From positions 23,126,001 to 23,190,000 of the forward strand of contig OZ249437.1 of NCBI GenBank assembly GCA_965235115.1: DNA of 64,000 bases, read 5' to 3'. Positions 47,946-62,351 of the stretch are shown piece after piece. Under the pieces are notes generated by a model. That model searched no databases and was not told the DNA's origin. It saw only the letters and a list, made by a program, of their open reading frames with translations. The first letter of the stretch is position 1, and each line of letters starts with the position of its first letter. Source of the stretch: Laetmonice hystrix. Lineage: Eukaryota. A program made the translations under genes and the position numbers.

Positions 47946-49592
47946 TTAACTAACTTGATGGTTAAAATATCGAATATAGGCACAACCAATGAATGAGACC
48001 AGTTCTTTTTTCAACCATCTGTTTTTAGACTGTATACTTACAGTTAAAAATCTATTCCTAATTAAAAGAATAAAATTCAGGAATTCCTTTTGGAACTTAA
48101 AAAAAAAAAGAGTCGGAATAATAGCGGCAATAACCATAAACCGGTGGTAGCACAGACCCTGCTGGGCTCAGGTTTTAAATGGAGGCCTCCCAGATGGGGC
48201 ATGATGTCATGCATGAAATAAGTCAAAAGTTAACTCTCTTAAAGGTAAACATGACAAATTAGGAGGTGGTCCTTAAAGAGGTACTTCATTTGTTGGATAG
48301 AAACAGTTGAGAATCCTTCCCAGCTCTACTCGAGCCGTACAAGTTTCTCTGGCCAGCATCACGTCGCCTGCCGACAAAGTGTGAATTAAAATAATTGATT
48401 TGGCGCTTGAGCAGATTTTGATTTAGCCTGAGGATGAAATAGAAGATCACACGGTTTGAGCTGAGAACTGTAGCTGACACTGGGGTCGGGGTGTTCTCTG
48501 AGGGACTGCCTGGGATGGTGAACGTTAAGTAAATAGGTCACAGGACCATGGTAAAACACGCCAGCCTCCGGGCCGGACAACAACCACAGCCAGAGGTAAA
48601 CCTCATTTCAAACATAATACAAGTTATACCTTCACAGTGCCTAACAACTCATAACGTGTCACGACCCTGAACATTCCTTTAATGGCCACATCTCGGTACA
48701 CGTTACCAGTGGCAGCTGAACCTATCACCCCTGAAATTACCACAGGTCGACTGGCAGAACCTTCACCCAGGTATTACATCAGTGGGGACCGTCTGTGTGC
48801 ACCTGGCTACGATTTGTTTTGAGATGAAACGAGAGCATGCAGTCATCACCCAGACGATTGCTTACAAACGGTGCACTGTACGTGACCCCAGGTGGGCTGT
48901 GGACACAGGGAAGTACTGACAACACCTGTACCATGTACCTGTGTATATTAAGATGCTTCAAGTGGACGCACTGACCGCAAGTAGTCCTTATCAATGGGTC
49001 CAAGTACCGGTCAGCACGGCCCGTATCGGGGTCTAGTGGTCAATATCATAACGGCATACGTACATACCTAGGTACACATTTACCTATAGCTGTATGTACT
49101 GACAGGGATCCACAACCCGGCCCCAATCCCACTCCAACACCTAGGTATGTATCATCAAGTATAATTTAATGTTTTCTATATTTTATTCTTAATCTGTTTT
49201 ATTCTTAATATTTCGTGTTTCCACGTTTGGTGGATCTGTATGTATGTATCTTCTCTGCAGCATGCAGAGGCCACACACAGGTCAGAAATATGTAGACCTA
49301 TCTCTATTTTAATCTTGGGAGGATGTGGAGTGGATATACGGTGGCTCAACGGAAAATCCCCAGCATGAGATCCCTGGTCCCCTAACACCTACCCCAGTCC
49401 TTATATGGTAGGGACATCAACTGACCAGTGGTCACCTCTGACGTGATTCCACGTATTTTGGGGGTCGGTCGCTGGTCCTCCCTTTGCCCCTCCAGATAAG
49501 GGCATGATCTGGGAAACCACACCCCCCTCTCACCGTGGGCAGCACGTGGGTGCAGGGCAGGGTTCATACTTGACCATGCACTGTACCCACAG

Positions 49593-49600
49593 TATATAAG
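49593..49600 (+). promoter_or_regulatory. TATA box in LTR (TATATAAG); copy at 57522-57529
   Basis: Canonical motif at about 55% of LTR length, upstream of a splice donor and an ATTAAA. Confidence 0.65.
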
Positions 49601-49721
49601 TCCCACAAAATCCTACCCAGGGAGATAGACCATAGAACAGATAGACACACATAGATACGATACATAGGAGACACACAGTCACCATCACCATCCACGTCAG
49701 CCACCAGCCACTCCACTCCTC

Positions 49722-49729
49722 CGGTAAGT
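49722..49729 (+). promoter_or_regulatory. 5' splice donor CG|GTAAGT in LTR (intron would start at 49724; copy at 57653)
   Basis: Perfect GTAAGT consensus about 130 nt downstream of the TATA box; no ATG between TATA and donor. Confidence 0.55.
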
Positions 49730-49799
49730 CAGCTTCTCACATTGTTGACGGTCACACTTGTACTGGGCATTTATACAACCTCTCGTAAGCTCTACTCGT

Positions 49800-49805
49800 A
49801 TTAAA
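49800..49805 (+). terminator. Putative poly(A) signal ATTAAA in LTR (functional copy would be 57729-57734)
   Basis: Second most common poly(A) hexamer, downstream of TATA, followed by T-rich sequence. Confidence 0.4.
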
Positions 49806-49937
49806 TTATTCTCTCTAACTCACGGATCCTACGTTATTATTCCCCTCCTATTATTAATTGTGTCGTTCCCGCTTGCTCACGCTAGTCTCCCCCCACAACA
49901 CGAAACCACCCATACACCGGTTAAGCGGGACGACAGT

Positions 49938-49946
49938 TGGTGGAGA
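49938..49946 (+). promoter_or_regulatory. Primer binding site TGGTGGAGA, tRNA-Ala type
   Basis: Starts after a 2-nt spacer (GT) following the LTR's ACA end; complementary to ...UCUCCA-CCA, the 3' end of metazoan tRNA-Ala. Confidence 0.75.
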
Positions 49947-49987
49947 GCAACCCGGGTATTCGACTCCCAGAACATATTCAAAATTTT

Positions 49988-51382
49988 ATGTCAAAAACCA
50001 TTTCCACCCCCAGTACGAGTAGACCCGATACTGCATGTCCAGCACATGCTACGAGGTCCAGAAAGCCGGAGTTAGCTGGAAAGTGGTCTGTGTCGGCTAG
50101 ACAGGTGACTGATCCTCCTCCATCTACTCCATCTACTCCATCTCCGCCTCCATCTCCACTGCCTCCATCACCACCTCTTGAAAGAATGGCTGAACAACCC
50201 GCCTGCCCGCCCTACACACAAACCTTTAACGGCTACTCAAGCAAGGATGGAGAAAATTTCATAGACAATTTTGACACTTACTGCAGCCACTACAACTGCA
50301 CGGCTGAAGACAAAACAAATCTTGTGTCTCTGTCGTTGACGGAGTTGGCCAGGGACTGGCTCAAATCATTTCTTCAGAGAGACGTTGCTTATGGTACTGA
50401 GGAGGCCAAGTGGGAGGCCCTAAAACGTGAATTTGGGGAAAGGTTTAGGCCTTCAGCAGACGATGTGCTCTTAGGGGAGCGCGCACTGGCCAGTCGGACA
50501 CAGTTGCCTAACGAGCAAGTAACGGCCTATATAGATATCATGCAGCTTGCTGCCCGCCACTGCCCAGAAGTAACCGAGCCTCAATTAGTGCGGCTCATAC
50601 TTGGAGGACTACGGCCAGAGATTAGGTCTCTGGTCATGACGCAACGCCCCCAGACTGTGGCCGATCTATATACAGCATCAGCCAACTGTAGCACACACAG
50701 CTACAGTGGCCCCGTGACCCAGGCGGCACCCCTGAACTTGAGACCGGCAGCCCCACCCTTCACCACCCAGTCAGCAGCCCCACCCTTCACCACCCAGTCA
50801 GCGGTTACATCATCACCCTCATCAACGGCCAGACTACCAGCACCCTCAGCCCTGCACTCCATCAGTAACCTACTGTATGGACAAACAACAACAGACGTCA
50901 CACCAGTAGATTTCACCCCATCCCAGCAGGACCAAACATCATCAGCTCTACAGAGATTGACAGAAATGATGGAGAAATTAACAACAGCAGTCAACACACA
51001 AGTCAATAGCCATCAACACAACAGCCATCAACACTCCTACAGATCGACATCGCCATCACACAATAGAAACCCACCGCGCTACCATCAGAGGGGAAGATCG
51101 CCCTCACCCAGGTCATCAGACAACAGTTACTGTGGCAACTGTGGAAACACCGGTTGCAGAGGTAGGCCCAACTGTCGCGCCATGAGTATGACTTGTCATC
51201 ATTGTGGCAGGTTAGGACATGTAATTTCTATGTGCAGGAGTAGGAAGAGTGGCATGCCTAGGCAAACATCCCTCAGGTACACCCCTCCCAGCCGTGGCAG
51301 AGCAAATGTTCAGTTTATGGCACCATCACACACCCAAAATAACCAGTATACTACCCAGCGCCACCCCTCACACTGGCATTGA
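49988..51382 (+). CDS. gag: Gag (464 aa from ATG 49988; 398 aa from alternative ATG 50186): capsid-like domain plus tandem zinc knuckles
   Basis: Retrotransposon capsid-like segment LTELARDWL...WEALKREFGERF...LILGGLRPEIRSLV; knuckles CGNCGNTGCRGRPNC and CHHCGRLGHVISMC; ends at TGA 51380-51382. Confidence 0.92.
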   Translation: MSKTISTPSTSRPDTACPAHATRSRKPELAGKWSVSARQVTDPPPSTPSTPSPPPSPLPPSPPLERMAEQPACPPYTQTFNGYSSKDGENFIDNFDTYCSHYNCTAEDKTNLVSLSLTELARDWLKSFLQRDVAYGTEEAKWEALKREFGERFRPSADDVLLGERALASRTQLPNEQVTAYIDIMQLAARHCPEVTEPQLVRLILGGLRPEIRSLVMTQRPQTVADLYTASANCSTHSYSGPVTQAAPLNLRPAAPPFTTQSAAPPFTTQSAVTSSPSSTARLPAPSALHSISNLLYGQTTTDVTPVDFTPSQQDQTSSALQRLTEMMEKLTTAVNTQVNSHQHNSHQHSYRSTSPSHNRNPPRYHQRGRSPSPRSSDNSYCGNCGNTGCRGRPNCRAMSMTCHHCGRLGHVISMCRSRKSGMPRQTSLRYTPPSRGRANVQFMAPSHTQNNQYTTQRHPSHWH

Positions 51383-54300
51383 TGTGGCTCATCTGTTCAC
51401 AATAGGGTTCATTTGAACAGGGAGAATACCACAGATAGTTTGCTGGCAAAGAAGTTATTCAATGATTATGAAAGAATAGATCAAGTCAAAACGTTATTTT
51501 CCTCTAAAGACTCCAACCTTTCAAAATCTTCAGACATTATATACAGTTCTCAAACCAATCAGTCAGTTGTCAAACAAATACAACCCAAGGCTAGGTTAAC
51601 CCCATCTCAAAACAAGAAAATAAATAGTGCTACTTTGAGAATTTCATCCAATCAGGACACTAATACAGATTTATCAGATTCAGATCATAAAGAAATAACA
51701 GTACCACACATCATGCAAGTCAATTCTAACACAGATAGCGAGTTTGGTAATCTTATCAGACTCAAGGTAGGCAACATTTCAACCCTTGCATTGGTTGATT
51801 CAGGTGCACGTGTCTCATGCATATCAAATAATTTCTTACGCAATATGCCTACAACACCAAAACAATTAATGCCTTTATTTGATGCTGTCGTTGGTGTTGG
51901 TGGTGAAGAACATAAAGTTCTTAGTTGCATTGAATTAAAGTTAAACATTCAAGGCTATCTTGTTACCCAGACCTTCCATGTTTTGGAGGGACATCATTCC
52001 GTTATCTTAGGATTGGATTTCCTCAATAGGTACAATATACAACTGAACTTTGAAGAAGGTAGCATGATTTTTCCAACAGGGAAATGTATACCTCTTCAGC
52101 ATCCACCACGACGGACAACAGTGGCTAGGACTGTTAGTACTATCCATATATTGCCAAGGTCACAACGCACAATAACAGTTGCTTTTTCTAAACCTCAACA
52201 CAGCCTTATCTATATGGAACCAGTATTTTCACTTCAGGAATTCCACCCAGATTTAGTTGTACCTCCAACTGTGGATGATCCCAAGGGACGCTTTACACAG
52301 TGTAAACTTTTAAATCACTCAGACAATTTAATTATTCTTCCAAAATTCACAGCTATTGGATTAGCGTCTACCTTATTCCAACCTGAAATATTATACAATA
52401 GTGAGGATGCCTTCAACGATGAGCTCTCAGGCCTTGATTATAAGGGAATGACTGAGTCTCAACTCCCAAAGCAAGACATTGATTTTGATGTCTCAAACTC
52501 CAACCTATCTCCTGAAAGCAAATCAGAGCTTTTAGAATTTTTAAAGGCACATAGAAAGGCATTTGCAGTTGACATCAGTGAGTTGGGAACAGTGAAGGTA
52601 GCACCCCATACGATAGACACAGGAGATTCACCTCCTGTCTCGCAACGGTTCTACAGAGCCAATCCAATCGTCAGGGAGGAAATAGATAAACAGATTGACC
52701 TACTTTTAAAACACAACGTTATTGAACCTTCCACCTCCATGTGGAGATCTCCTATTGTTATGGTTCGAAAAAGTGACTCTTCCTACCGTTTTGCCATTGA
52801 CTTTCGTAAACTAAACCAAGTTACTAAGAAAATTTCGTTTCCCTTAGCTCGAGTCGAGGATGTTTGGGATTCTATTGGCCAACGGAAGAGTGCTATTTAT
52901 AGCCTTCTGGATTTAAATTCGGGATTCTGGCAGGTAAAGCTCGATCCAGCAACAAAACACAAAACAGGATTCGTTACCCAACATCGCCAATTTCAATTTC
53001 GCAAGTTACCATTCGGTTTGTGCAATGCCCCAGCTACTTTTCAGAAAACCATGACTGAAGTGCTTGGAGATACTCTCTATGACTGTGCCTTCGTCTACGT
53101 CGATGACATAATCGTCCACTCGCCTGACTTTAAAACACATTTAAAAGACCTTGAACGAGTTTTCAAACGCCTTGAAGAAGCTGGTATAACTCTGAAACCG
53201 AGTAAATGCAAATTTGGTGAAGATTCTGTCAAATATCTAGGTCACATTCTATCAAAGGATGGAATTCGCCCAAACCCAGACAAAATCAGAATTGTTAAAG
53301 ATTTTGTTACACCTACCAATCCTCGCCATGTCAGAAAATTTCTAGGCTTATGCAATTATTATAGGCGATTCATAAAAGATTTTGGGAAACTTCGTGCACC
53401 ATTGAATGATCTCTTGATCAAGAACACACCATTCAGCTGGACAGAAGAGTGTGCCCACTCCTTCCAGACACTGAAAGATAGACTGACAGGCCCAGTTATG
53501 TTATGTTTCCCTGACCCCACACGTAAGTACACCATTACCTGTGACGCCAGTGGCACTGGCCTAGGTTTTATTTTATCTCAGCAGGACAAACATGGTATTG
53601 ACCGTGTACTGGCCTATGGTGGCAGATCACTAAGACGTGATGAGAAAGCATATTCCATCACTGAACGTGAAGGATTAGCAGTGATTGAAGGAATCAGAGA
53701 ATACAGGACATATTTAATCGGATCTGATTTTGATATTGTTACCGACCACAAGGCTTTGACCTACATAAAAGCAAATGAAGGAGGCACTGGCAGATTAGCC
53801 AGATGGGCTCTAGAACTTGCGGGATACAATTATAATGTTGTTTTCCGTAAGGGCGCTGAAAATGTTAATGCAGATGTTCTTTCACGTACTGATGACATCA
53901 CTACAGACATTAAAGCAAAACTATCCCATTCCGTTGCATGTCAAACTGATTCTTTCCAACCTGGAGAGATGGAAACCGTTAATGTTGATGAAATTATTCA
54001 TCCACACTTAGCTGCTCTGAGTGAACATCTTTTTCAACCAGATCCTATGCCTAACCTATCAACTCAAATTGCTGCCATAGACATCAATGCAGAAATTGAT
54101 GCACAAGAACAAACCCAGTTACAACTCACTTCTGAAGCCGATATAAAAAGGCAACAACAAACGGGAAAAACAGGAAAGATTCTAAACTATCTTCTGACCA
54201 ATCAAAACAAACCAGAAGGCTACACAGACGCCAATCTAGCCAAGTTTAAGGTACAAGATGGTCTATTGTATCATCAACTGTATCTTGGTGTAGATCCTAC

Positions 54301-55777
54301 AGGCACAGAAATAATTAAATTACAGTTAGTTATACCAGAAGAAGGAAAAGTCTCTCCTGGAGACTTAAGATCTAGTGTTATGGAACACTATCACAACAAT
54401 CTCTTGGGGGGATGTCATCAAGGTTTTGACAGAACCTATGATGCCATAAGGCGAAAGTATTTTTGGTTCAATATGTATACCCATGTTCAGGATTTGGTCA
54501 ACAGTTGTGCCAGTTGCCAACAAGCAAAGACCCACAGACACTCTCGACCAGCACCTCTCAAGCCCATGCCCATTGTTGGTCGTTTTGAACGATGGCATAT
54601 TGATTTCTTGGGTCCACTTCGCGAAAGTTCTGGCAACCATAAATACATCCTTTTAATAGTTGATTCATTTTCACGTTGGCCAGAAGCCTTTCCACTTGAG
54701 TCAAGTGATGCAAAAACAGTTGCAAGGGTATTGTATGAAGAAATATTCACCCGCTATGGCGCTCCAAAAACTCTTGTATCAGATAGAGGAAAACAATTCC
54801 TATCCATGCTTGTGGCTTCTTTGTGTGAACTTTTCAAAGTTAAACGTATTCACACATCCCCTTACCACCCACAAACGAATGCAACCTGTGAACGTTTTAA
54901 TGCAGTAATTGCACAAGGATTGAGAGCATATGTGGACACAACTCAATCAGATTGGCATACATATTTGCCAGGAATTCTCATGAGCTACCGTGCAACACCA
55001 GCTGCTCGATCAACAGGAATGTCCCCATTCTATACACTCTTTGGTGAAGATATGTCTCTTCCCATTGACAGAATAGTGGAACCTAAACCGAATCTTCCCA
55101 CAACTGTACAGAATTACTTGACAAAAACACTGGGACACATCCGTCGAATCCATGAACTTGCAAAAAGTAACATTGAGAAACATCAAACTCAGTACAAAAG
55201 TTACTATGATAAAGATACAGAGCCTCCACGATTCAAAGTCAACCAATTGGTGTGGCTTAGAGACCAGAAGGTCCCAGTTGGTTTGTCTTCCAAACTGCAC
55301 AAACCATGGAAAGGACCGTACTATATAGAACAGGTCCATGACAATAATACGTACACTCTGCGTAACATGTCATCCCACAAACCATTACCAAATCGTCAGA
55401 ATGGTAACAGGCTGAAACCATGTGTTACTTCAGAACCTCCACCTGAGACAATGGAACCTGACAATAACCAGACCCCTCCACAGTCAAATACCACAACTGT
55501 ACCCCCAAACATTCTGAGTGACCCAACTTCCAATGTAACACATGATGTTATGAATGATCCTAATCCACCCAAACCAATTAAGATCCTTAAAGCAGGATAT
55601 CAAAATGGGAAAAAGGTTTATAAAGTTCGATTAGAAGGACAGTCACCACAATGGCTGCTTCCAAACGATGTTCCACCAAACATGATAGCAGATTTTCATG
55701 CTAAGTTCACAAACACTGGGAAAGCGAAAAAGTTCAAACAGAAATCCTTGTTACAGGAATGTAGAGTTTCACAATAA
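51383..55777 (+). CDS. pol: Pol polyprotein (protease, RT, RNase H, integrase, chromo-like tail), same frame as gag
   Basis: LVDSGA (Asp codon at 51797) and ILGLDFL; IDFRKLN, LDLNSGFWQ, LPFGLCNAPATFQ, YVDD (53096-53107); CDASG, TDHKAL, ADVLSR; integrase H..H..C..C, IDFLGP, SDRGKQF, CERFN, WKGPY. Open from the codon after the gag TGA to TAA 55775-55777. Confidence 0.97.
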   Translation, partial: CGSSVHNRVHLNRENTTDSLLAKKLFNDYERIDQVKTLFSSKDSNLSKSSDIIYSSQTNQSVVKQIQPKARLTPSQNKKINSATLRISSNQDTNTDLSDSDHKEITVPHIMQVNSNTDSEFGNLIRLKVGNISTLALVDSGARVSCISNNFLRNMPTTPKQLMPLFDAVVGVGGEEHKVLSCIELKLNIQGYLVTQTFHVLEGHHSVILGLDFLNRYNIQLNFEEGSMIFPTGKCIPLQHPPRRTTVARTVSTIHILPRSQRTITVAFSKPQHSLIYMEPVFSLQEFHPDLVVPPTVDDPKGRFTQCKLLNHSDNLIILPKFTAIGLASTLFQPEILYNSEDAFNDELSGLDYKGMTESQLPKQDIDFDVSNSNLSPESKSELLEFLKAHRKAFAVDISELGTVKVAPHTIDTGDSPPVSQRFYRANPIVREEIDKQIDLLLKHNVIEPSTSMWRSPIVMVRKSDSSYRFAIDFRKLNQVTKKISFPLARVEDVWDSIGQRKSAIYSLLDLNSGFWQVKLDPATKHKTGFVTQHRQFQFRKLPFGLCNAPATFQKTMTEVLGDTLYDCAFVYVDDIIVHSPDFKTHLKDLERVFKRLEEAGITLKPSKCKFGEDSVKYLGHILSKDGIRPNPDKIRIVKDFVTPTNPRHVRKFLGLCNYYRRFIKDFGKLRAPLNDLLIKNTPFSWTEECAHSFQTLKDRLTGPVMLCFPDPTRKYTITCDASGTGLGFILSQQDKHGIDRVLAYGGRSLRRDEKAYSITEREGLAVIEGIREYRTYLIGSDFDIVTDHKALTYIKANEGGTGRLARWALELAGYNYNVVFRKGAENVNADVLSRTDDITTDIKAKLSHSVACQTDSFQPGEMETVNVDEIIHPHLAALSEHLFQPDPMPNLSTQIAAIDINAEIDAQEQTQLQLTSEADIKRQQQTGKTGKILNYLLTNQNKPEGYTDANLAKFKVQDGLLYHQLYLGVDPTGTEIIKLQLVIPEEGKVSPGDLRSSVMEHYHNNLLGGCHQGFDRTYDAIRRKYFWFNMYTHVQDLVNSCASCQQAKTHRHSRPAPLKPMPIVGRFERWHIDFLGPLRESSGNHKYILLIVDSFSRWPEAFPLESSDAKTVARVLYEEIFTRYGAPKTLVSDRGKQFLSMLVASLCELFKVKRIHTSPYHPQTNATCERFNAVIAQGLRAYVDTTQSDWHTYLPGILMSYRATPAARSTGMSPFYTLFGEDMSLPIDRIVEPKPNLPTTVQNYLTKTLGHIRRIHELAKSNIEKHQTQYKSYYDKDTEPPRFKVNQLVWLRDQKVPVGLSSKLHKPWKGPYYIEQVHDNNTYTLRNMSSHKPLPNRQNGNRLKPCVTSEPPPETMEPDNNQTPPQSNTTTVPPNILSDPTSNVTHDVMNDPNPPKPIKILKAGYQNGKKVYKVRLEGQSPQWLLPNDVPPNMIADFHAKFTNTGKAKKFKQKSLLQECRVSQ

Positions 55778-55835
55778 TTTGATAATAGTTCAGGCTAATT
55801 GAATGGCCCAGAATAATGATCCAAAAACATTATAA

Positions 55836-56507
55836 ATGGTAATGTGGATCGGCCTTCCTCATAACTGCACAAGGGAGAGGACTTGTAGAAAGTCAACACT
55901 CGAGACTAGTGGTGTAAGACGGAAATTTTTTTTCTCACCATTATCATTTTCAACAATTAGGGCTGGTTCCCTTCACAACATTGAAAACTCGTATTCCGCT
56001 TTCTTCTGCTCGCTCTCCAGAGTGGCCATCAGGGCCCATGATGGCACGACAGCCCACATCGTCATCGTCCCGCAGTCGAGGATTTTTATGGCTTTTGATT
56101 CTTTGTTTCTGTGGCTATACATGCAGCCTGGCAACCTCATTGGTATAGAATTTTGTGATAGGGATAAAAGTATCACAATACCGATTGTGTCAGTACCTTT
56201 TTGTCCCAAGTTCTATAATTTTACTGCTGCTAGCGTCTTAAAACAACTGGAAATCCAGGGTACTCTTCTCCCAAAGATTCTTATTACTTGGGATAACTTA
56301 AAGGTTACAAACTTGTTAACGGATGAGACCATTGAAATGCCAACTGTAATAACCATCTCACCCCTTTCTGCCTACCGCCTTAGGAAACTTGTTCGCTCAC
56401 CTTATGAGGCCCATTTCTTGATGGACCATGGGCGTAGATCCGTCTATATACCACTGTGTGCCCAACCATGTAATGCTATGTATCCTGAACTGCCACGTTC
56501 AACTTAG
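55836..56507 (+). CDS. Accessory ORF3 downstream of pol (223 codons open; likely real part from about 56088/56145), possibly a truncated env-like protein
   Basis: Open frame between pol and the 3' LTR. The C-terminal 120 aa (IEFCDRDKSITIPIVSVPFCP...ITWDNLKVTN...AYRLRKLVRSPY) read like a folded beta-rich domain and resemble, from memory only, the post-transmembrane tail of env-like ORFs in invertebrate Gypsy elements. Confidence 0.55.
   Translation: MVMWIGLPHNCTRERTCRKSTLETSGVRRKFFFSPLSFSTIRAGSLHNIENSYSAFFCSLSRVAIRAHDGTTAHIVIVPQSRIFMAFDSLFLWLYMQPGNLIGIEFCDRDKSITIPIVSVPFCPKFYNFTAASVLKQLEIQGTLLPKILITWDNLKVTNLLTDETIEMPTVITISPLSAYRLRKLVRSPYEAHFLMDHGRRSVYIPLCAQPCNAMYPELPRST
56038..56148 (+). CDS. 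Small hydrophobic Cys-rich ORF (36 aa, MMARQPTSSSSRSRGFLWLLILCFCGYTCSLATSLV); possible N-terminal membrane anchor of ORF3
   Basis: First ATGs after the strong acceptor at 56020; second ATG has A at -3 and G at +4; hydrophobic core GFLWLLILCFC; stop overlaps the start of the globular-looking part of ORF3 in the -1 frame. Confidence 0.4.
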   Translation: MMARQPTSSSSRSRGFLWLLILCFCGYTCSLATSLV

Positions 56508-57064
56508 ATAGTTTTAGGTTTTAAGGTATTTTAGCTTTTGTATTTGCCACTGTTGACGAGTCATATTTCAATTATGTGTAATGCGACAGAGGGTCTGCCT
56601 CTGGTATTTTGGTGTTGTTTTTTTTTCTTCTTCAAGTGTCACATTTATATTTTGTGACTTCTTCATGTGGACTCCTTACCTTTTGGACTGGACATATATC
56701 CACGACAAGTGTGTTTATTGATAATTTGTGTGCTTTTGTTTTCTTGGTGCAAACCTTTGACCAAGCAAGGTCATAACGAACAATGGACAATTCTCCGGTC
56801 GCATACGGACATTCGCCAGTTGCCAGCACAACTGTGAACCCTCGGTGGACTATGCCGACTCAAGGACTTCAGTTCCATTTATATAAATATTATTATTATT
56901 GTATCAATGTGTTGTTTTAGCTTCGGCTCGAAGCATGGAACATTTAATTTTTCTTGTGGACTTATAAAACTTTTAAAGGTCTATCTTCAGACCTCCTTTT
57001 CATCTGTGAAGGACACAGTGCAAGATAGTTTTAATGACTTTACGTTCGGAGACCGAACTTTTCT

Positions 57065-57078
57065 AACAACCGGAGTGA
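57065..57078 (+). other. Atypical polypurine-tract position (AACAACCGGAGTGA)
   Basis: Directly precedes the 3' LTR; only weakly purine-rich. Confidence 0.4.
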
Positions 57079-57864
57079 TATCATCAAGTATAATTTAATG
57101 TTTTCTATATTTTATTCTTAATCTGTTTTATTCTTAATATTTCGTGTTTCCACGTTTGGTGGATCTGTATGTATGTATCTTCTCTGCAGCATGCAGAGGC
57201 CACACACAGGTCAGAAATATGTAGACCTATCTCTATTTTAATCTTGGGAGGATGTGGAGTGGATATACGGTGGCTCAACGGAAAATCCCCAGCATGAGAT
57301 CCCTGGTCCCCTAACACCTACCCCAGTCCTTATATGGTAGGGACATCAACTGACCAGTGGTCACCTCTGACGTGATTCCACGTATTTTGGGGGTCGGTCG
57401 CTGGTCCTCCCTTTGCCCCTCCAGATAAGGGCATGATCTGGGAAACCACACCCCCCTCTCACCGTGGGCAGCACGTGGGTGCAGGGCAGGGTTCATACTT
57501 GACCATGCACTGTACCCACAGTATATAAGTCCCACAAAATCCTACCCAGGGAGATAGACCATAGAACAGATAGACACACATAGATACGATACATAGGAGA
57601 CACACAGTCACCATCACCATCCACGTCAGCCACCAGCCACTCCACTCCTCCGGTAAGTCAGCTTCTCACATTGTTGACGGTCACACTTGTACTGGGCATT
57701 TATACAACCTCTCGTAAGCTCTACTCGTATTAAATTATTCTCTCTAACTCACGGATCCTACGTTATTATTCCCCTCCTATTATTAATTGTGTCGTTCCCG
57801 CTTGCTCACGCTAGTCTCCCCCCACAACACGAAACCACCCATACACCGGTTAAGCGGGACGACA
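57079..57864 (+). repeat. 3' LTR
   Basis: Copy of 49150-49935, followed immediately by TSD TATG. Confidence 0.96.
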
Positions 57865-58190
57865 TATGCTACTCTGTACGGATCACTAAAACAGGACACA
57901 ATACTCACAGTCCACCCTCACCCTGCCCGCTGTTTGTCCCAACCCTCACCTTCAACCTCTCACCCTGCCGACCTCTGACCCTGTGACCTCACCCTGATTG
58001 TACGGGTTCAGCGGCAGGATCGTCACCCCACGCCGCACACATTGTACGGCTGGTTACCTCCGACTCTCATCCTTGACCAGCGGGCAGTCACTGTCCAGTC
58101 ACCTTGACCCCTCCCTCATGTCCTCTGGTACCAACTGACTGTCACCAACTGGGGTCTAACTAATTCACCTAGCGACAGGGGGTGGCCGGA

Positions 58191-60720
58191 CGTGATTGGG
58201 TCTCAGTGAGACCCATTGTTGATGTGTGGATCCTGTGTTTTTCTTTTGAAATGCACGGGCATCAGGGGTAACCCAATTACTTTGACAATGTCCCTAAAGA
58301 GAAAAGTTGTATAGTCCTCTACAGGAATCGAACCCAGGCCCTAAGATTACTGCACCCATTCGCATAGCATGTGATTGGGTCTCACAAAGACCCAGTGAGA
58401 CCCATTGTTGATGTGTGGATCCTGTGTGTGATTGGGTCTCACAAAGACCCAGTGAGACCCATTGTTGATGTGTGGATCCTGTGTGTGAATGGGTCTCACA
58501 AAGACCCAGTGAGACCCATTGTTGATGTGTGGATCCTGTGTGTGATTGGGTCTCACAAAGATCCAGTGAGACCCATTGTTGATGTGTGGATCCTTTGTGT
58601 GGATCCTGTGTGTGAATGGGTCTCACAAAGACCCAGTGAGACCCATTGTTGATGTGTGGATCCTGTGTGTGAATGGGTCTCACAAAGATCCAGTGAGACC
58701 CATTGTTGATGTGTGGATCCTGTGTGATTGGGTCTCACAAAGACCCAGTGAGACCCATTGTTGATGTGTGGATCCTGTGTGTTAATGGGTCTCACAAAGA
58801 CCCAGTGAGACCCATTGTTGATGTGTGGATCCTGTGTTTTTCTTTTGAAAATGCACGGGCATCAGGGGTAACCCAATTACTTTTGACAATGTCCCTAAAG
58901 AGAAAAGTTGTATAGTCCTCTACAGGAATCGAACCCAGGCCCTAAGATTACTGCACCCATTCGCATAGCATAAGGTGTCGACATCCATGCCCACTAGGCC
59001 ACCGCTACTCCCCTAATAAAGGAGCTTTGGTGGTCGAGCAGGACAATGGACCCTCCCCCCTACACACATCTTTTTTAAATGAGACGGAATCCATATTTTC
59101 CTAGTTAGAGCTACACATGATTTCTACCGAACATTGACTGTTAAGGTAATCCTGGCACTGGCGTAGACTGTATTTTTCTTTTGAAAATGCACGGGCATCA
59201 GGGGTAACCCAATTACTTTTGACAATGTCCCTAAAGAGAAAAGTTGTATAGTCCTCTACAGGAATCGAACCCAGGCCCTAAGATTACTGCACCCATTCGC
59301 ATAGCATAAGGTGTCGACATCCATGCCCACTAGGCCACCGCCACTCCCCTAATAAAGGAGCTTTGGTGGTCGAGCAGGACAATGGACCCTCCCCCCTACA
59401 CACATCTTTTTTAAATGAGACGGAATCCATATTTTCCTAGTTAGAGCTACACATGATTTCTACCGAACATTGACTGTTAAGGTAATCCTGGCACTGGCGT
59501 AGACTGTATTTTTCTTTTGAAAATGCACGGGCATCAGGGGTAACCCAATTACTTTTGACAATGTCCCTAAAGAGAAAAGTTGTATAGTCCTCTACAGGAA
59601 TCGAACCCAGGCCCTAAGATTACTGCACCCATTCGCATAGCAAGGTGTCGACATCCATGCCCACTAGGCCACCGCCACTCCCCTAATAAAGGAGCTTTGG
59701 TGGTCGAGCAGGACAATGGACCCTCCCCCCTACACACATCTTTTTTAAATGAGACGGAGTGATTGGGTCTCACAAAGATCCAGTGAGACCCATTGTTGAT
59801 GTGTGGATCCTCTGTGTGATTGGGTCTCAGTGAGACCCAGTGAGACCCATTGTTGATGTGTTGATCCTGTGTGTGATTGGATCTCACAAAGACCCAGTGA
59901 GACCCATTGTTGATGTGTGGATCCTGTGTGTGATTGGGTCTCACAAAGACCCAGTGAGACCCATTGTTGATGTGTGGATCCTGTGTGTGATTGGGTCCCA
60001 GTGAGACCCATTGTTGATGTGTGGATCCTGTGTGTGATTGGGTCTCACAAAGACCCAGTGAGACCCATTGTTGATGTGTGGATCCTGTGTGTGATTGGGT
60101 CTCACAAAGACCCAGTGAGATCTATTGTTGATGTGTGGATCCTGTGTTTTTCTTTTGAAATGCACGGGCATCAGGGGTAACCCAATTACTTTGACAATGT
60201 CCCTAAAGAGAAAGGTTGTATAGTCCTCTACAGGAATCGAACCCAGGCCCTAAGATTACTGCACCCATTCGCATAGCATAAGGTGTCGACATCGTGATTG
60301 GGTCTCAGTGAGACCCAGTGAGACCCATTGTTGATGTGTGGATCCTGTGTGTGATTGGGTCTCACAAAGACCCAGTGAGACCCATTGTTGATGTGTTGAT
60401 CCTGTGTGTGATTGGGTCTCACAAAGACCCAGTGAGACCCATTGTTGATGTGTGGATCCTGTGTGTGATTGGGTCTCAGTGAGACCCATTGTTGACGTGT
60501 GGATCCTGTGTGTGCATCCTGTGTGTGATTGGGTCTCACAAAGACCCAGTGAGACCCATTGTTGATGTGTGGATCCTGTGTGTGATTGGGTCTCACAAAG
60601 ACCCAGTGAGACCCATTGTCTGTGTGTGGATCCTGTGTGTGATTGGGTCTCACAAAGACCCAGTGAGACCCATTGTTGATGTGTGGATCCTCTGTGTGAT
60701 TGGGTCTCACATTGGGTCTC
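58191..60720. repeat. Composite array: 57-bp hairpin minisatellite interleaved with five SINE copies
   Basis: Unit GTGATTGGGTCTCACAAAGACCCAGTGAGACCCATTGTTGATGTGTGGATCCTGTGT; 336-bp tandem block at about 58838-59758. Confidence 0.92.
58838..59008 (-). mobile_element. tRNA-derived SINE-like element (about 170 bp), full copy; further copies at +336 and +672 bp, truncated copies at about 58238-58368 and 60148-60293
   Basis: Minus strand has A box TGGCCTAGTGG (58991-59001), B box GGTTCGATTCC (58925-58935) and an A-rich 3' end; the acceptor stem does not pair, so it is not a functional tRNA. Confidence 0.7.
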
Positions 60721-60873
60721 ACTGTGTCTGAAGCGAGAGTTTGGGTGTAATTGCAATGACCCTGCCGACAGTGAGCCGATCACACCAGGCGGCTGGAGAT
60801 GTCCCCCATCACCTGTCTGCTCCCTGAGGTGTTACCCTGGTCTGTCCTGATTCATGCTGTCCCACACCTTGAT

Positions 60874-62351
60874 CAGGGATGAAAGTGGCCAGCTGTAAAA
60901 TTTCCTGAAATTCTGACCGGGGGGGGGGGGGGGGAGCGGCGGGGGCCAATGTCCATAATTAATATTTGTTCATGCGCACATCCAAGGCTTACCCCCCCCC
61001 CCCCCTTAAAAAAAGTCAGGCTAGGAACAGCAGACAATCATGATCCAATAAGGCCTCCTAGCTATTATATATTATAGGGCCTAGCCCTCAGTATTTAGTC
61101 GCCACCCCCCCCCCACCCCCCCACCCCCCCCCCCCCTCAACCCCCCACCCCTGCAAATTTGCTGGATAGACTCCATCACTCATCAGTCCATGCCCCTGTT
61201 CAAGGCTGTTGCTTGCCTGTCACTCAGTCACAGTCAGTGCATGTCAACCTCTGCCTGGCTGTGCCGTCTCTCTCCAACATTGGAATCCAGTCGGCTTTTA
61301 GCGTCCAAAATGCAACCGATTACGTTGTCAAACAGCTTCCATGTGTTAGACTGACCACACAGGCTGTCCATCAGTCTTGACCCTCAGCAGTCACGACCCT
61401 CAGCGGCTCTCAGCCAAGCAACACAGTCGCTGAGTCGAGTGGTTCAGCCCGTGTGTCCATGTGCCACTCGTCTCATGTTGTTGTGAAAATTGTCACTTCC
61501 GGTCTTATCAGGACACCTGCACTGATCGACAAATGTAATGAAAAGTCCTGACAACCCCAAAACTTCAGTGAAAACCACTTACGTAATGCCACTATCCTCA
61601 AATTTATATGCAAGAACACATTATGAGAACTTACTGACATATATACTAGGCAGATTCATAGAACTAAATTGACCCAGTTTCCTGTGAGGAGTGACATGTG
61701 ATGGTGCATAGTTCGTCAGCCTAATCACTATCACCAACGCCGGGACTAGACAGACCGGTCTGTCTATACTATAGTCTCGTTCACTAAGTGAGCGCTCAGG
61801 CAAAACTCGCGCATGGATATGGCATAATGGCAAGCCTGAATCAACGGGCTTCGCAGCTGCCTGACCATCAATTTTGCCTGAAGTCATTACCTGAGGCGAG
61901 TCGCTCTCACCACAGCGACACGGGGCCGTGCCTGCCAGACGGGACAGACGCCACCGCGTGCCGGTAGAAGTCAGCTCACGCCGGCCGGTCTATGTGAGCG
62001 ATGTGACCACAGCTACAGGGACCAGCACCCCCGGCAGACCGGCCTATGCACGGTGGCACCCGTGACACTGAACGGGTTTGAGACACTCTAATATCCCCAT
62101 CTATAAACGAACTTTGGCAGGTAGATATATTGAGCTGCATGGTGTTAAAAAACGTCCTGGAAGGGGATATTGTTTCATTTGATATTAATTGCCCACCACA
62201 CAGTCCAGGGCAATACTTAGCCTTGGCTTAGGCCTACCTCTTTTGCCTATAGATCTAGGCCTATTTCCTTTTTTGGGTGTTATTTCTTGGGGGGGGGGGA
62301 TTTTTTCAAATTTCCTGATTTCAGGAAATTTCCTGAAAACTTTCATCCCTG
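60874..62351. mobile_element. Non-autonomous DNA transposon, 1478 bp, 13-bp TIR CAGGGATGAAAGT, 6-bp TSD CTTGAT (hAT-like)
   Basis: TIRs at 60874-60886 and 62339-62351; CTTGAT at 60868-60873 and 62352-62357; subterminal AAATTTCCTGAA motifs at both ends; no transposase ORF. Confidence 0.8.

Follow-up and report, generated by a model that had tools for sequence, protein, structure and literature searches.

The 64,000-nt stretch of Laetmonice hystrix DNA analysed here (assembly GCA_965235115.1, contig OZ249437.1, positions 23,126,001 to 23,190,000; hereafter ‘the window’, all features being given on its forward strand) carries a long terminal repeat (LTR) retrotransposon of Ty3/Gypsy type (Metaviridae), with LTRs, a target-site duplication, a gag gene, and a pol gene encoding protease, reverse transcriptase (RT), RNase H and integrase in that order. 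The gag gene, taken from its first in-frame ATG to a UGA (49988..51382), matches Retrotrans_gag, Ty3_capsid and zf-CCHC, and has a CCHC zinc knuckle at 51194..51235. By Pfam, capsid and zinc knuckle lie upstream of this stop; downstream of it come protease, RT, RNase H and integrase, within a pol frame (51383..55777) that opens with a spacer and has its catalytic Asp codon at 51797. An Atlas search confirmed an aspartyl protease, and nothing beyond it. We argue here that the UGA between gag and pol (51380..51382) is very probably subject to programmed readthrough, stimulated by a compact stem-loop that is conserved across one clade of related elements.

The gag frame (49925-51382) closes with this TGA, and the 1464 codons of pol (51383-55777) follow on in the identical frame, such that a single UGA splits one gag/pol frame open to 55777; this is what the original prediction, made by a model from the letters alone, had described, and the same frame and coordinates were recovered. 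It had also taken the stop to be a natural end for Gag, some 45 codons past the zinc knuckles (we measure 48 codons past the CCHC knuckle), and had counted 110 stop-free codons from the UGA to the first in-frame pol ATG (51713..51715, 28 codons ahead of the catalytic Asp), which we find as well. Over 124 codons there are 6 and 12 stops in the two alternative frames, and the chance of none arising at the local base composition is about 1e-4.

All 13 matches to the window family in the genome carry TGA at this position, and a private nonsense mutation, which the prediction had named as a possible refutation, is not borne out. The segment 51380-51433 is unchanged in 12 of these copies, with the one change in the remaining copy leaving a G-U pair, and insertions or deletions between the stop and the protease are confined to two copies, where they amount to a net -21 and -48 nt, both multiples of three. 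Contigs from two sequencing runs of one sample also span the junction; none of the differences listed falls on the stop, with 143 others outside those listed, and this sample may be the assembly's own source, so the contigs are not counted as support.

A hairpin had been predicted directly 3′ of the UGA, and its arms do lie where they were placed, but the part that is conserved across the clade is the upper stem (arms 51391-99 and 51414-22 of a stem-loop at 51391..51422) and not the one adjoining the stop. The latter is a TGTGG/CCACA pairing, in which the first 5 nt of the 8-nt spacer (51383..51390) can pair with 51429-51433; it is present only in the window family and its sister, where it shows a compensatory change, and a ribosome at the stop would presumably have to open this lower stem in these UGA-U families. 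We keep the idea of a stimulatory stem-loop 3′ of the stop, and suggest that the likely stimulator is the stem set 8 nt downstream rather than the one that touches the stop. Taken alone, the window hairpin is of modest significance, scoring z -2.68 against shuffles (2/200) with the boundaries first chosen for it, -1.92 for 51380-51436, and +0.19 for 51380-51480 (101 nt).

Comparison with relatives is more informative. A protease search of the genome gave 91 matches, and the loci then examined comprised 30 that were returned plus 40 stretches around matches. From 98 own-genome loci screened, 63 distinct places gave an alignment to a junction; they represent 21 junction types, with TAG at 44 places, TGA at 16 and a sense codon at 3. 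A ‘type’ is defined here by its junction; types L045 and L047 are nearly alike in RT and yet have clearly different junction hairpins (41 vs 38 nt), suggesting recombination between families. A metagenome scan gave a further 7 loci from three assemblies, 5 of which cover the junction, and all 5 have gag, stop and pol in one frame together with the same stem; judging from their distance in the tree, these probably stem from other host species. Identity in RT among relatives with the same layout, own-genome types and metagenome contigs alike, is ~46-77%, and no relative was found among the viral contigs searched. The stop context is UAG-G in 20 of 24 representatives, with TGA in the other 4, window included; this minority is made up of UGA-U, in the window family and its sister, and UGA-A. 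Four database Pol proteins start with the very peptide that the hairpin would encode.

When the junctions are anchored at the stop and aligned without gaps, an 8-nt spacer, the 5′ end of which is often rich in G, is followed by a GCCUG…CAGGC-type stem. A 1x1 mismatch frequently interrupts this stem once five pairs have formed, and the onset of this stem lies exactly 8 nt past the stop in 22/22 aligned types. The stem covaries, with 8 of the 10 pairs of the named helix changing on both sides; in the trimmed alignment 89% of its cells are paired, a level reached by 0/500 shuffles and to be compared with 25-44% for slid helices. RNAalifold recovers the stem unaided, with two-sided changes in 7/9 pairs, and the basal five pairs are kept in sequence as well as in pairing. 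The fairer test of structure is a folding scan with 45-nt windows over untrimmed rows, in which 22 representatives gave a mean z of -2.98 at +8 (16/22 below -2), and mean z stayed between -0.49 and +0.41 away from the stop (offsets ≤-20 or ≥+12). A covariance model built on 22 rows found six held-out loci (four new types) at E ≤ 0.0024; across 42 sources it returned nothing below E 0.8 from other Gypsy lineages, and its next matches, at E of at least 0.016, were to a tandem repeat in the window. The fold of one type, L053, is ambiguous between 26 nt and 48 nt, the latter at P 0.52. We see no sign of a pseudoknot, since loop-to-downstream complementarity was no better than in shuffles at 23/23 junctions (p ≥ 0.34); a search for pairing of the spacer was likewise negative across the junction set, and an Rfam scan of 49000-58000 gave no relevant match.

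A pattern search of the genome served only to find candidates, its counts (87 matches, vs 46 with a 7-nt spacer and 20 for the reversed pattern) being inflated by two unrelated repeats; the 14 pattern loci fetched comprise 7 in which a CCHC gag ends at the stop, 2 with the stem and no recognised gag, and 5 without the full stem and without gag or pol. Four loci, L131-L134 (C2, C10, C4, C11), have no pol match nearby and an intact stop and hairpin, two of them with a CCHC gag ending at the stop and two without a recognised gag.

The stem-loops differ in length (20, 26, 29, 32, 38, 41 and 50 nt), and these lengths are all equal modulo 3 in 21/22 representatives; between stop and protease, moreover, no representative has its frame interrupted, across widely differing spacer lengths. 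Because the lengths step by three and the frame stays open, we suggest that the stretch just past the stop is translated. At the same time, Pro in the arms is encoded by CCT in 19/20 cases (background 25%) and Arg by AGG in 21/21 (background 21%), and Pro is replaced by Ser, His or Leu where pairing persists; codons fixed beyond codon usage, with residues that change while pairing is kept, argue that it is the RNA, rather than the peptide, that is under selection.

The layout is restricted to a single clade. In RT trees built by a quick method and by FastTree (midpoint root, with the short-RT rows L088 and L089 left out), 20/20 readthrough rows fall in one branch, with support of 97 and 98. 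An RT search provided 20 further Gypsy loci, none of which has the readthrough layout: in 14, gag overlaps pol in a different frame, while 2 show one continuous frame and the other 4 are uninformative. A slippery-like heptamer (by a relaxed pattern) is present in 12/12 of those examined, and frameshift layouts are the prevailing arrangement in neighbouring Gypsy lineages. Loci L152 and L062 are almost identical in RT, one with a continuous gag-pol frame and the other with a frameshift layout; the difference is probably a private indel. Among the 55 of 150 database protein matches examined, with multi-stretch proteins excluded as probable chimeric gene models, there is one zinc knuckle-protease fusion, and it lies outside the readthrough branch.

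Bringing these observations together, we propose the following model for the window junction, to which we assign a probability of roughly 0.87. The full-length RNA of the element would be translated from the gag start, with most ribosomes terminating at the gag stop and releasing Gag, and a minority inserting an amino acid at the stop and going on into pol, to give a Gag-Pol of ~1929 residues that the protease would then cut. With the stop in the A site, a stem-loop from +12 would sit at the mRNA entrance of the ribosome, and might there shift the contest between release factor and near-cognate tRNA towards the latter, as in murine leukaemia virus (MLV). The outcome would be an excess of Gag over Gag-Pol, secured by a signal inherited across one Gypsy clade. 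Recoding of the UGA to yield a ~1929-aa product had been part of the original prediction, and is supported, as an inference, by the 13/13 TGA and by a stem that covaries across distant families and in other assemblies; it is likewise from sequence that we infer that ribosomes pass the stop, that the stem stimulates this, and that the efficiency leaves Gag in excess.

Several points weigh against this model. The window is itself a poor exemplar, as its conserved stem is the weakest of those tested (-6.8 kcal/mol, z -1.9; z -0.5 in the 45-nt scan) and its context is UGA-U, without the clade's G at +4. In the alignment behind the pair counts the rows were cut at the ends of the hairpin, a bias towards structure, and they are related, such that the counts are not independent. 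The similar-looking junction of the Candida albicans element Tca2 gave no readthrough in a yeast reporter (PMC2194720). Two of the three sense codons are CAG (both in one rearranged copy) and the third is TAT (in a gag-less copy). Locus L063 (C2:39470449-39480448), nested within the readthrough branch, has gag and pol in one uninterrupted frame and lacks the signal; it is fragmented, with gag tandemly duplicated and the protease motif deleted, and here lineage loss and deletion in a dead copy are indistinguishable. A Met, finally, stands 21-31 codons ahead of the catalytic Asp in 13/24 junction types, window included, and recurs in the same place in P0001; it may simply mark a protease cleavage site.

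That Met would also suit a scheme in which pol is made separately, as it is in foamy viruses, either from a spliced RNA (LTR donor to an acceptor at 51509) or from an internal promoter, with a start just before the protease. The window does have a putative, consensus-like donor in its LTR (49724..49729, equally a candidate for env), an acceptor-like pyrimidine tract with AG (51490..51509), and the ATG at 51713, which is the first ATG past that acceptor; Tca2, too, has a minor promoter at its junction (PMC2194720). We nevertheless think separate expression improbable, because 9/24 junction types have no Met ahead of the active site, the acceptor AG is missing in 2/13 copies, and the shared frame, stop-free spacer, three-base length steps and fixed 8-nt distance of the stem would all be left unexplained. 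Splicing of another kind is conceivable if the clade's TAG-G, YAG/G being the acceptor consensus, were a 3′ splice site joining pol in frame to an upstream gag exon; TAGG occurs in 20/24 representatives, a few with pyrimidine-rich bases upstream, but the upstream pyrimidine content (0.49) equals background, with 0.65 reached by only 3/20, and in the 4/24 with TGA, window included, there is no acceptor and the stem is in an unchanged place, making this very unlikely.

It is also unlikely, in our view, that bypass of the stop on the gag-pol RNA depends on its context or on distant elements, with the stem serving instead in packaging, dimerisation or RNA export. Retention of the signal by pol-less derivatives, conservation of the basal five pairs in sequence and not in pairing alone, and the insufficiency of flanking sequence in Tca2 (PMC2194720) would fit such a role; a packaging signal, however, would not need an onset exactly 8 nt past the stop, which is found in 22/22 types and is the spacing of known stimulators. 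That a single gag-pol ORF (open reading frame) has merely been broken here, by a private nonsense mutation or through faulty assembly, has a negligible probability: continuous frames do occur in 3 other loci, but nothing in the window family favours it, with TGA in 13/13 copies and a stop clade-wide. Two further candidates were rejected, namely reinitiation at the stop-overlapping ATG (TGATG), which in neither UGA-U family is in frame with pol, and selenocysteine recoding, which is specific to UGA and calls for a selenocysteine insertion sequence (SECIS), given UAG in 20/24 relatives and the Rfam result above.

Programmed readthrough between gag and pol, the explanation we favour, is not new in itself; the original prediction had listed gammaretroviruses and Tca2, which we take to be a Copia-type element, as the established cases. 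Both are indeed known, but so are the fungal Gypsy elements Tj1 and Tosmo (PMC4600332, bioRxiv 2022.12.06.519325), and readthrough has been proposed for RIRE2 of rice (PMC2754532). In the gag-pol signal of Moloney MLV (MoMLV), as in the clade, the stop lies between zinc knuckle and protease, the structure is also protein-coding, and an 8-nt spacer precedes a helix from +12 (PMC13517186, PMC3159437); UAG-G, in most clade families, and a spacer often G-rich at its 5′ end are further likenesses. The clade differs in having a simple hairpin with no pseudoknot signal, and in belonging to Ty3/Gypsy rather than Retroviridae, and the window family in its UGA-U and its 110-codon spacer before the protease region. 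In terms of the MLV-type (type III) signal, the window thus has the 8-nt spacer and the helix from +12, and lacks the UAG-G context and an H-type pseudoknot. Tj1, Tosmo1-3 and Tcry1, Ty3/Gypsy elements of fission yeasts, also have gag-UGA-pol in one frame, and transposition of Tj1 requires the stop; the signal described for these fungal elements is, in contrast, an 8-nt context, GAA-UGA-CU, with no downstream stem reported in the available text (PMC4600332, bioRxiv 2022.12.06.519325). Tca2 shares gag-UGA-pol, with a structure that lies downstream and a purine-rich spacer of 8 nt, but is a single element that directed no readthrough in S. cerevisiae and for which the text available reports no clade-wide covariation (PMC2194720). 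The alphavirus, tobravirus-group and Drosophila kelch signals also have a stem 7-12 nt past the stop with compensatory changes, though loops of ~100-270 nt are usual within those stems, which mostly follow UGA-C, whereas the clade hairpin is a compact 20-50 nt (PMC3159437).

What appears to be new is the clade-wide covarying signal, very probably one of programmed readthrough. Our literature search, which had subscription papers and Repbase outside its scope, found no description of it in animal Gypsy elements. The gag-pol recoding survey of Gao et al. 2003 reportedly included a few stop-separated elements. According to a 2026 review, no readthrough stimulator has yet been analysed on the ribosome, and the portions of it available to us make no mention of retrotransposons, Gypsy or Metaviridae (PMC13517186). 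The compact hairpin, of 20-50 nt, comes in over 20 natural variants that keep the spacer constant and include UAG as well as UGA, a ready-made set for reporter assays and structural work. There is also a consequence for annotation, in that elements of this kind may be classed as broken, and automatic gene prediction begins Pol at an internal codon. We would give even odds to a broader proposition: that this is an old env- and chromodomain-bearing animal Gypsy lineage with a structure-driven readthrough of its own, in which MLV-like geometry is independent and built on a plain hairpin, the nearly invariant base of five pairs is recognised at the ribosome entrance by its particular sequence or shape and is not a mere barrier, and switches between UAG and UGA are tolerated. 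If true, this would be the first time that a readthrough structure both conserved and covarying is described for a clade of metazoan retrotransposons.

Downstream of pol, a third ORF (55836..56507) is a remnant of an F-type env, with ~1.96 kb missing near 56139 relative to another family copy, and its match is to the C-terminal part of a Baculo_F-positive env. Three other family copies were aligned over their full length: two have the window's ~1.96-kb env gap and one has an 878-codon third ORF that, without a Pfam match itself, is 48.5% identical to the Baculo_F-positive ORF3 of the sister family. The window family is therefore of errantivirus type, the mark of which is an ORF3 with kinship to F or gB fusogens. 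The env gap is common to the window copy and two other young copies (among L125, L127 and L128), in which the C-terminal domain of env stays an open frame, and the recently spread lineage seems to be this env-truncated form; a strong acceptor-like tract lies near 55961, in the env-gapped ORF3 region. The C-terminus of Pol (55574..55705) is modelled as a putative chromodomain-like fold, with weak E-values in Foldseek: the model has a pLDDT (predicted local distance difference test) of 79 and the top Foldseek rows are chromodomains or chromo-fold proteins, the best at E 0.017 and none at E ≤ 0.001, with profile search giving HP1 at E 0.53 only and no Pfam match. An ‘ancient errantivirus’ clade with a chromodomain C-terminal to integrase has been described from Cnidaria, Mollusca and Annelida (PMC13524379), and our element, as a Ty3/Gypsy element with an F-type env and a putative chromodomain-like fold after integrase, would fit it by these features; the main text and seven supplements of that paper, as available to us, make no mention of readthrough or frameshift.

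The remaining features concern the element as an insertion. Its 5′ LTR (49150..49935, 786 nt) is the same as the 3′ LTR (57079..57864), and, as the pair matches at 786/786 nt, the element is very young and its insertion very recent; the empty site (joint 49145-57865) is present in two runs of one sample. The target-site duplication is 4 bp (49146..49149, with a second copy at 57865-57868), and a stretch resembling a primer-binding site, starting with TGG, lies at 49938..49955. The LTR begins with TA and not TG, as it does in every family copy with a readable end, and target-site duplications in the family are 4 bp. Flanking the retrotransposon on both sides, minisatellite arrays with units of ~12-81 nt are dense at window positions 1-46000 and 58200-61000.

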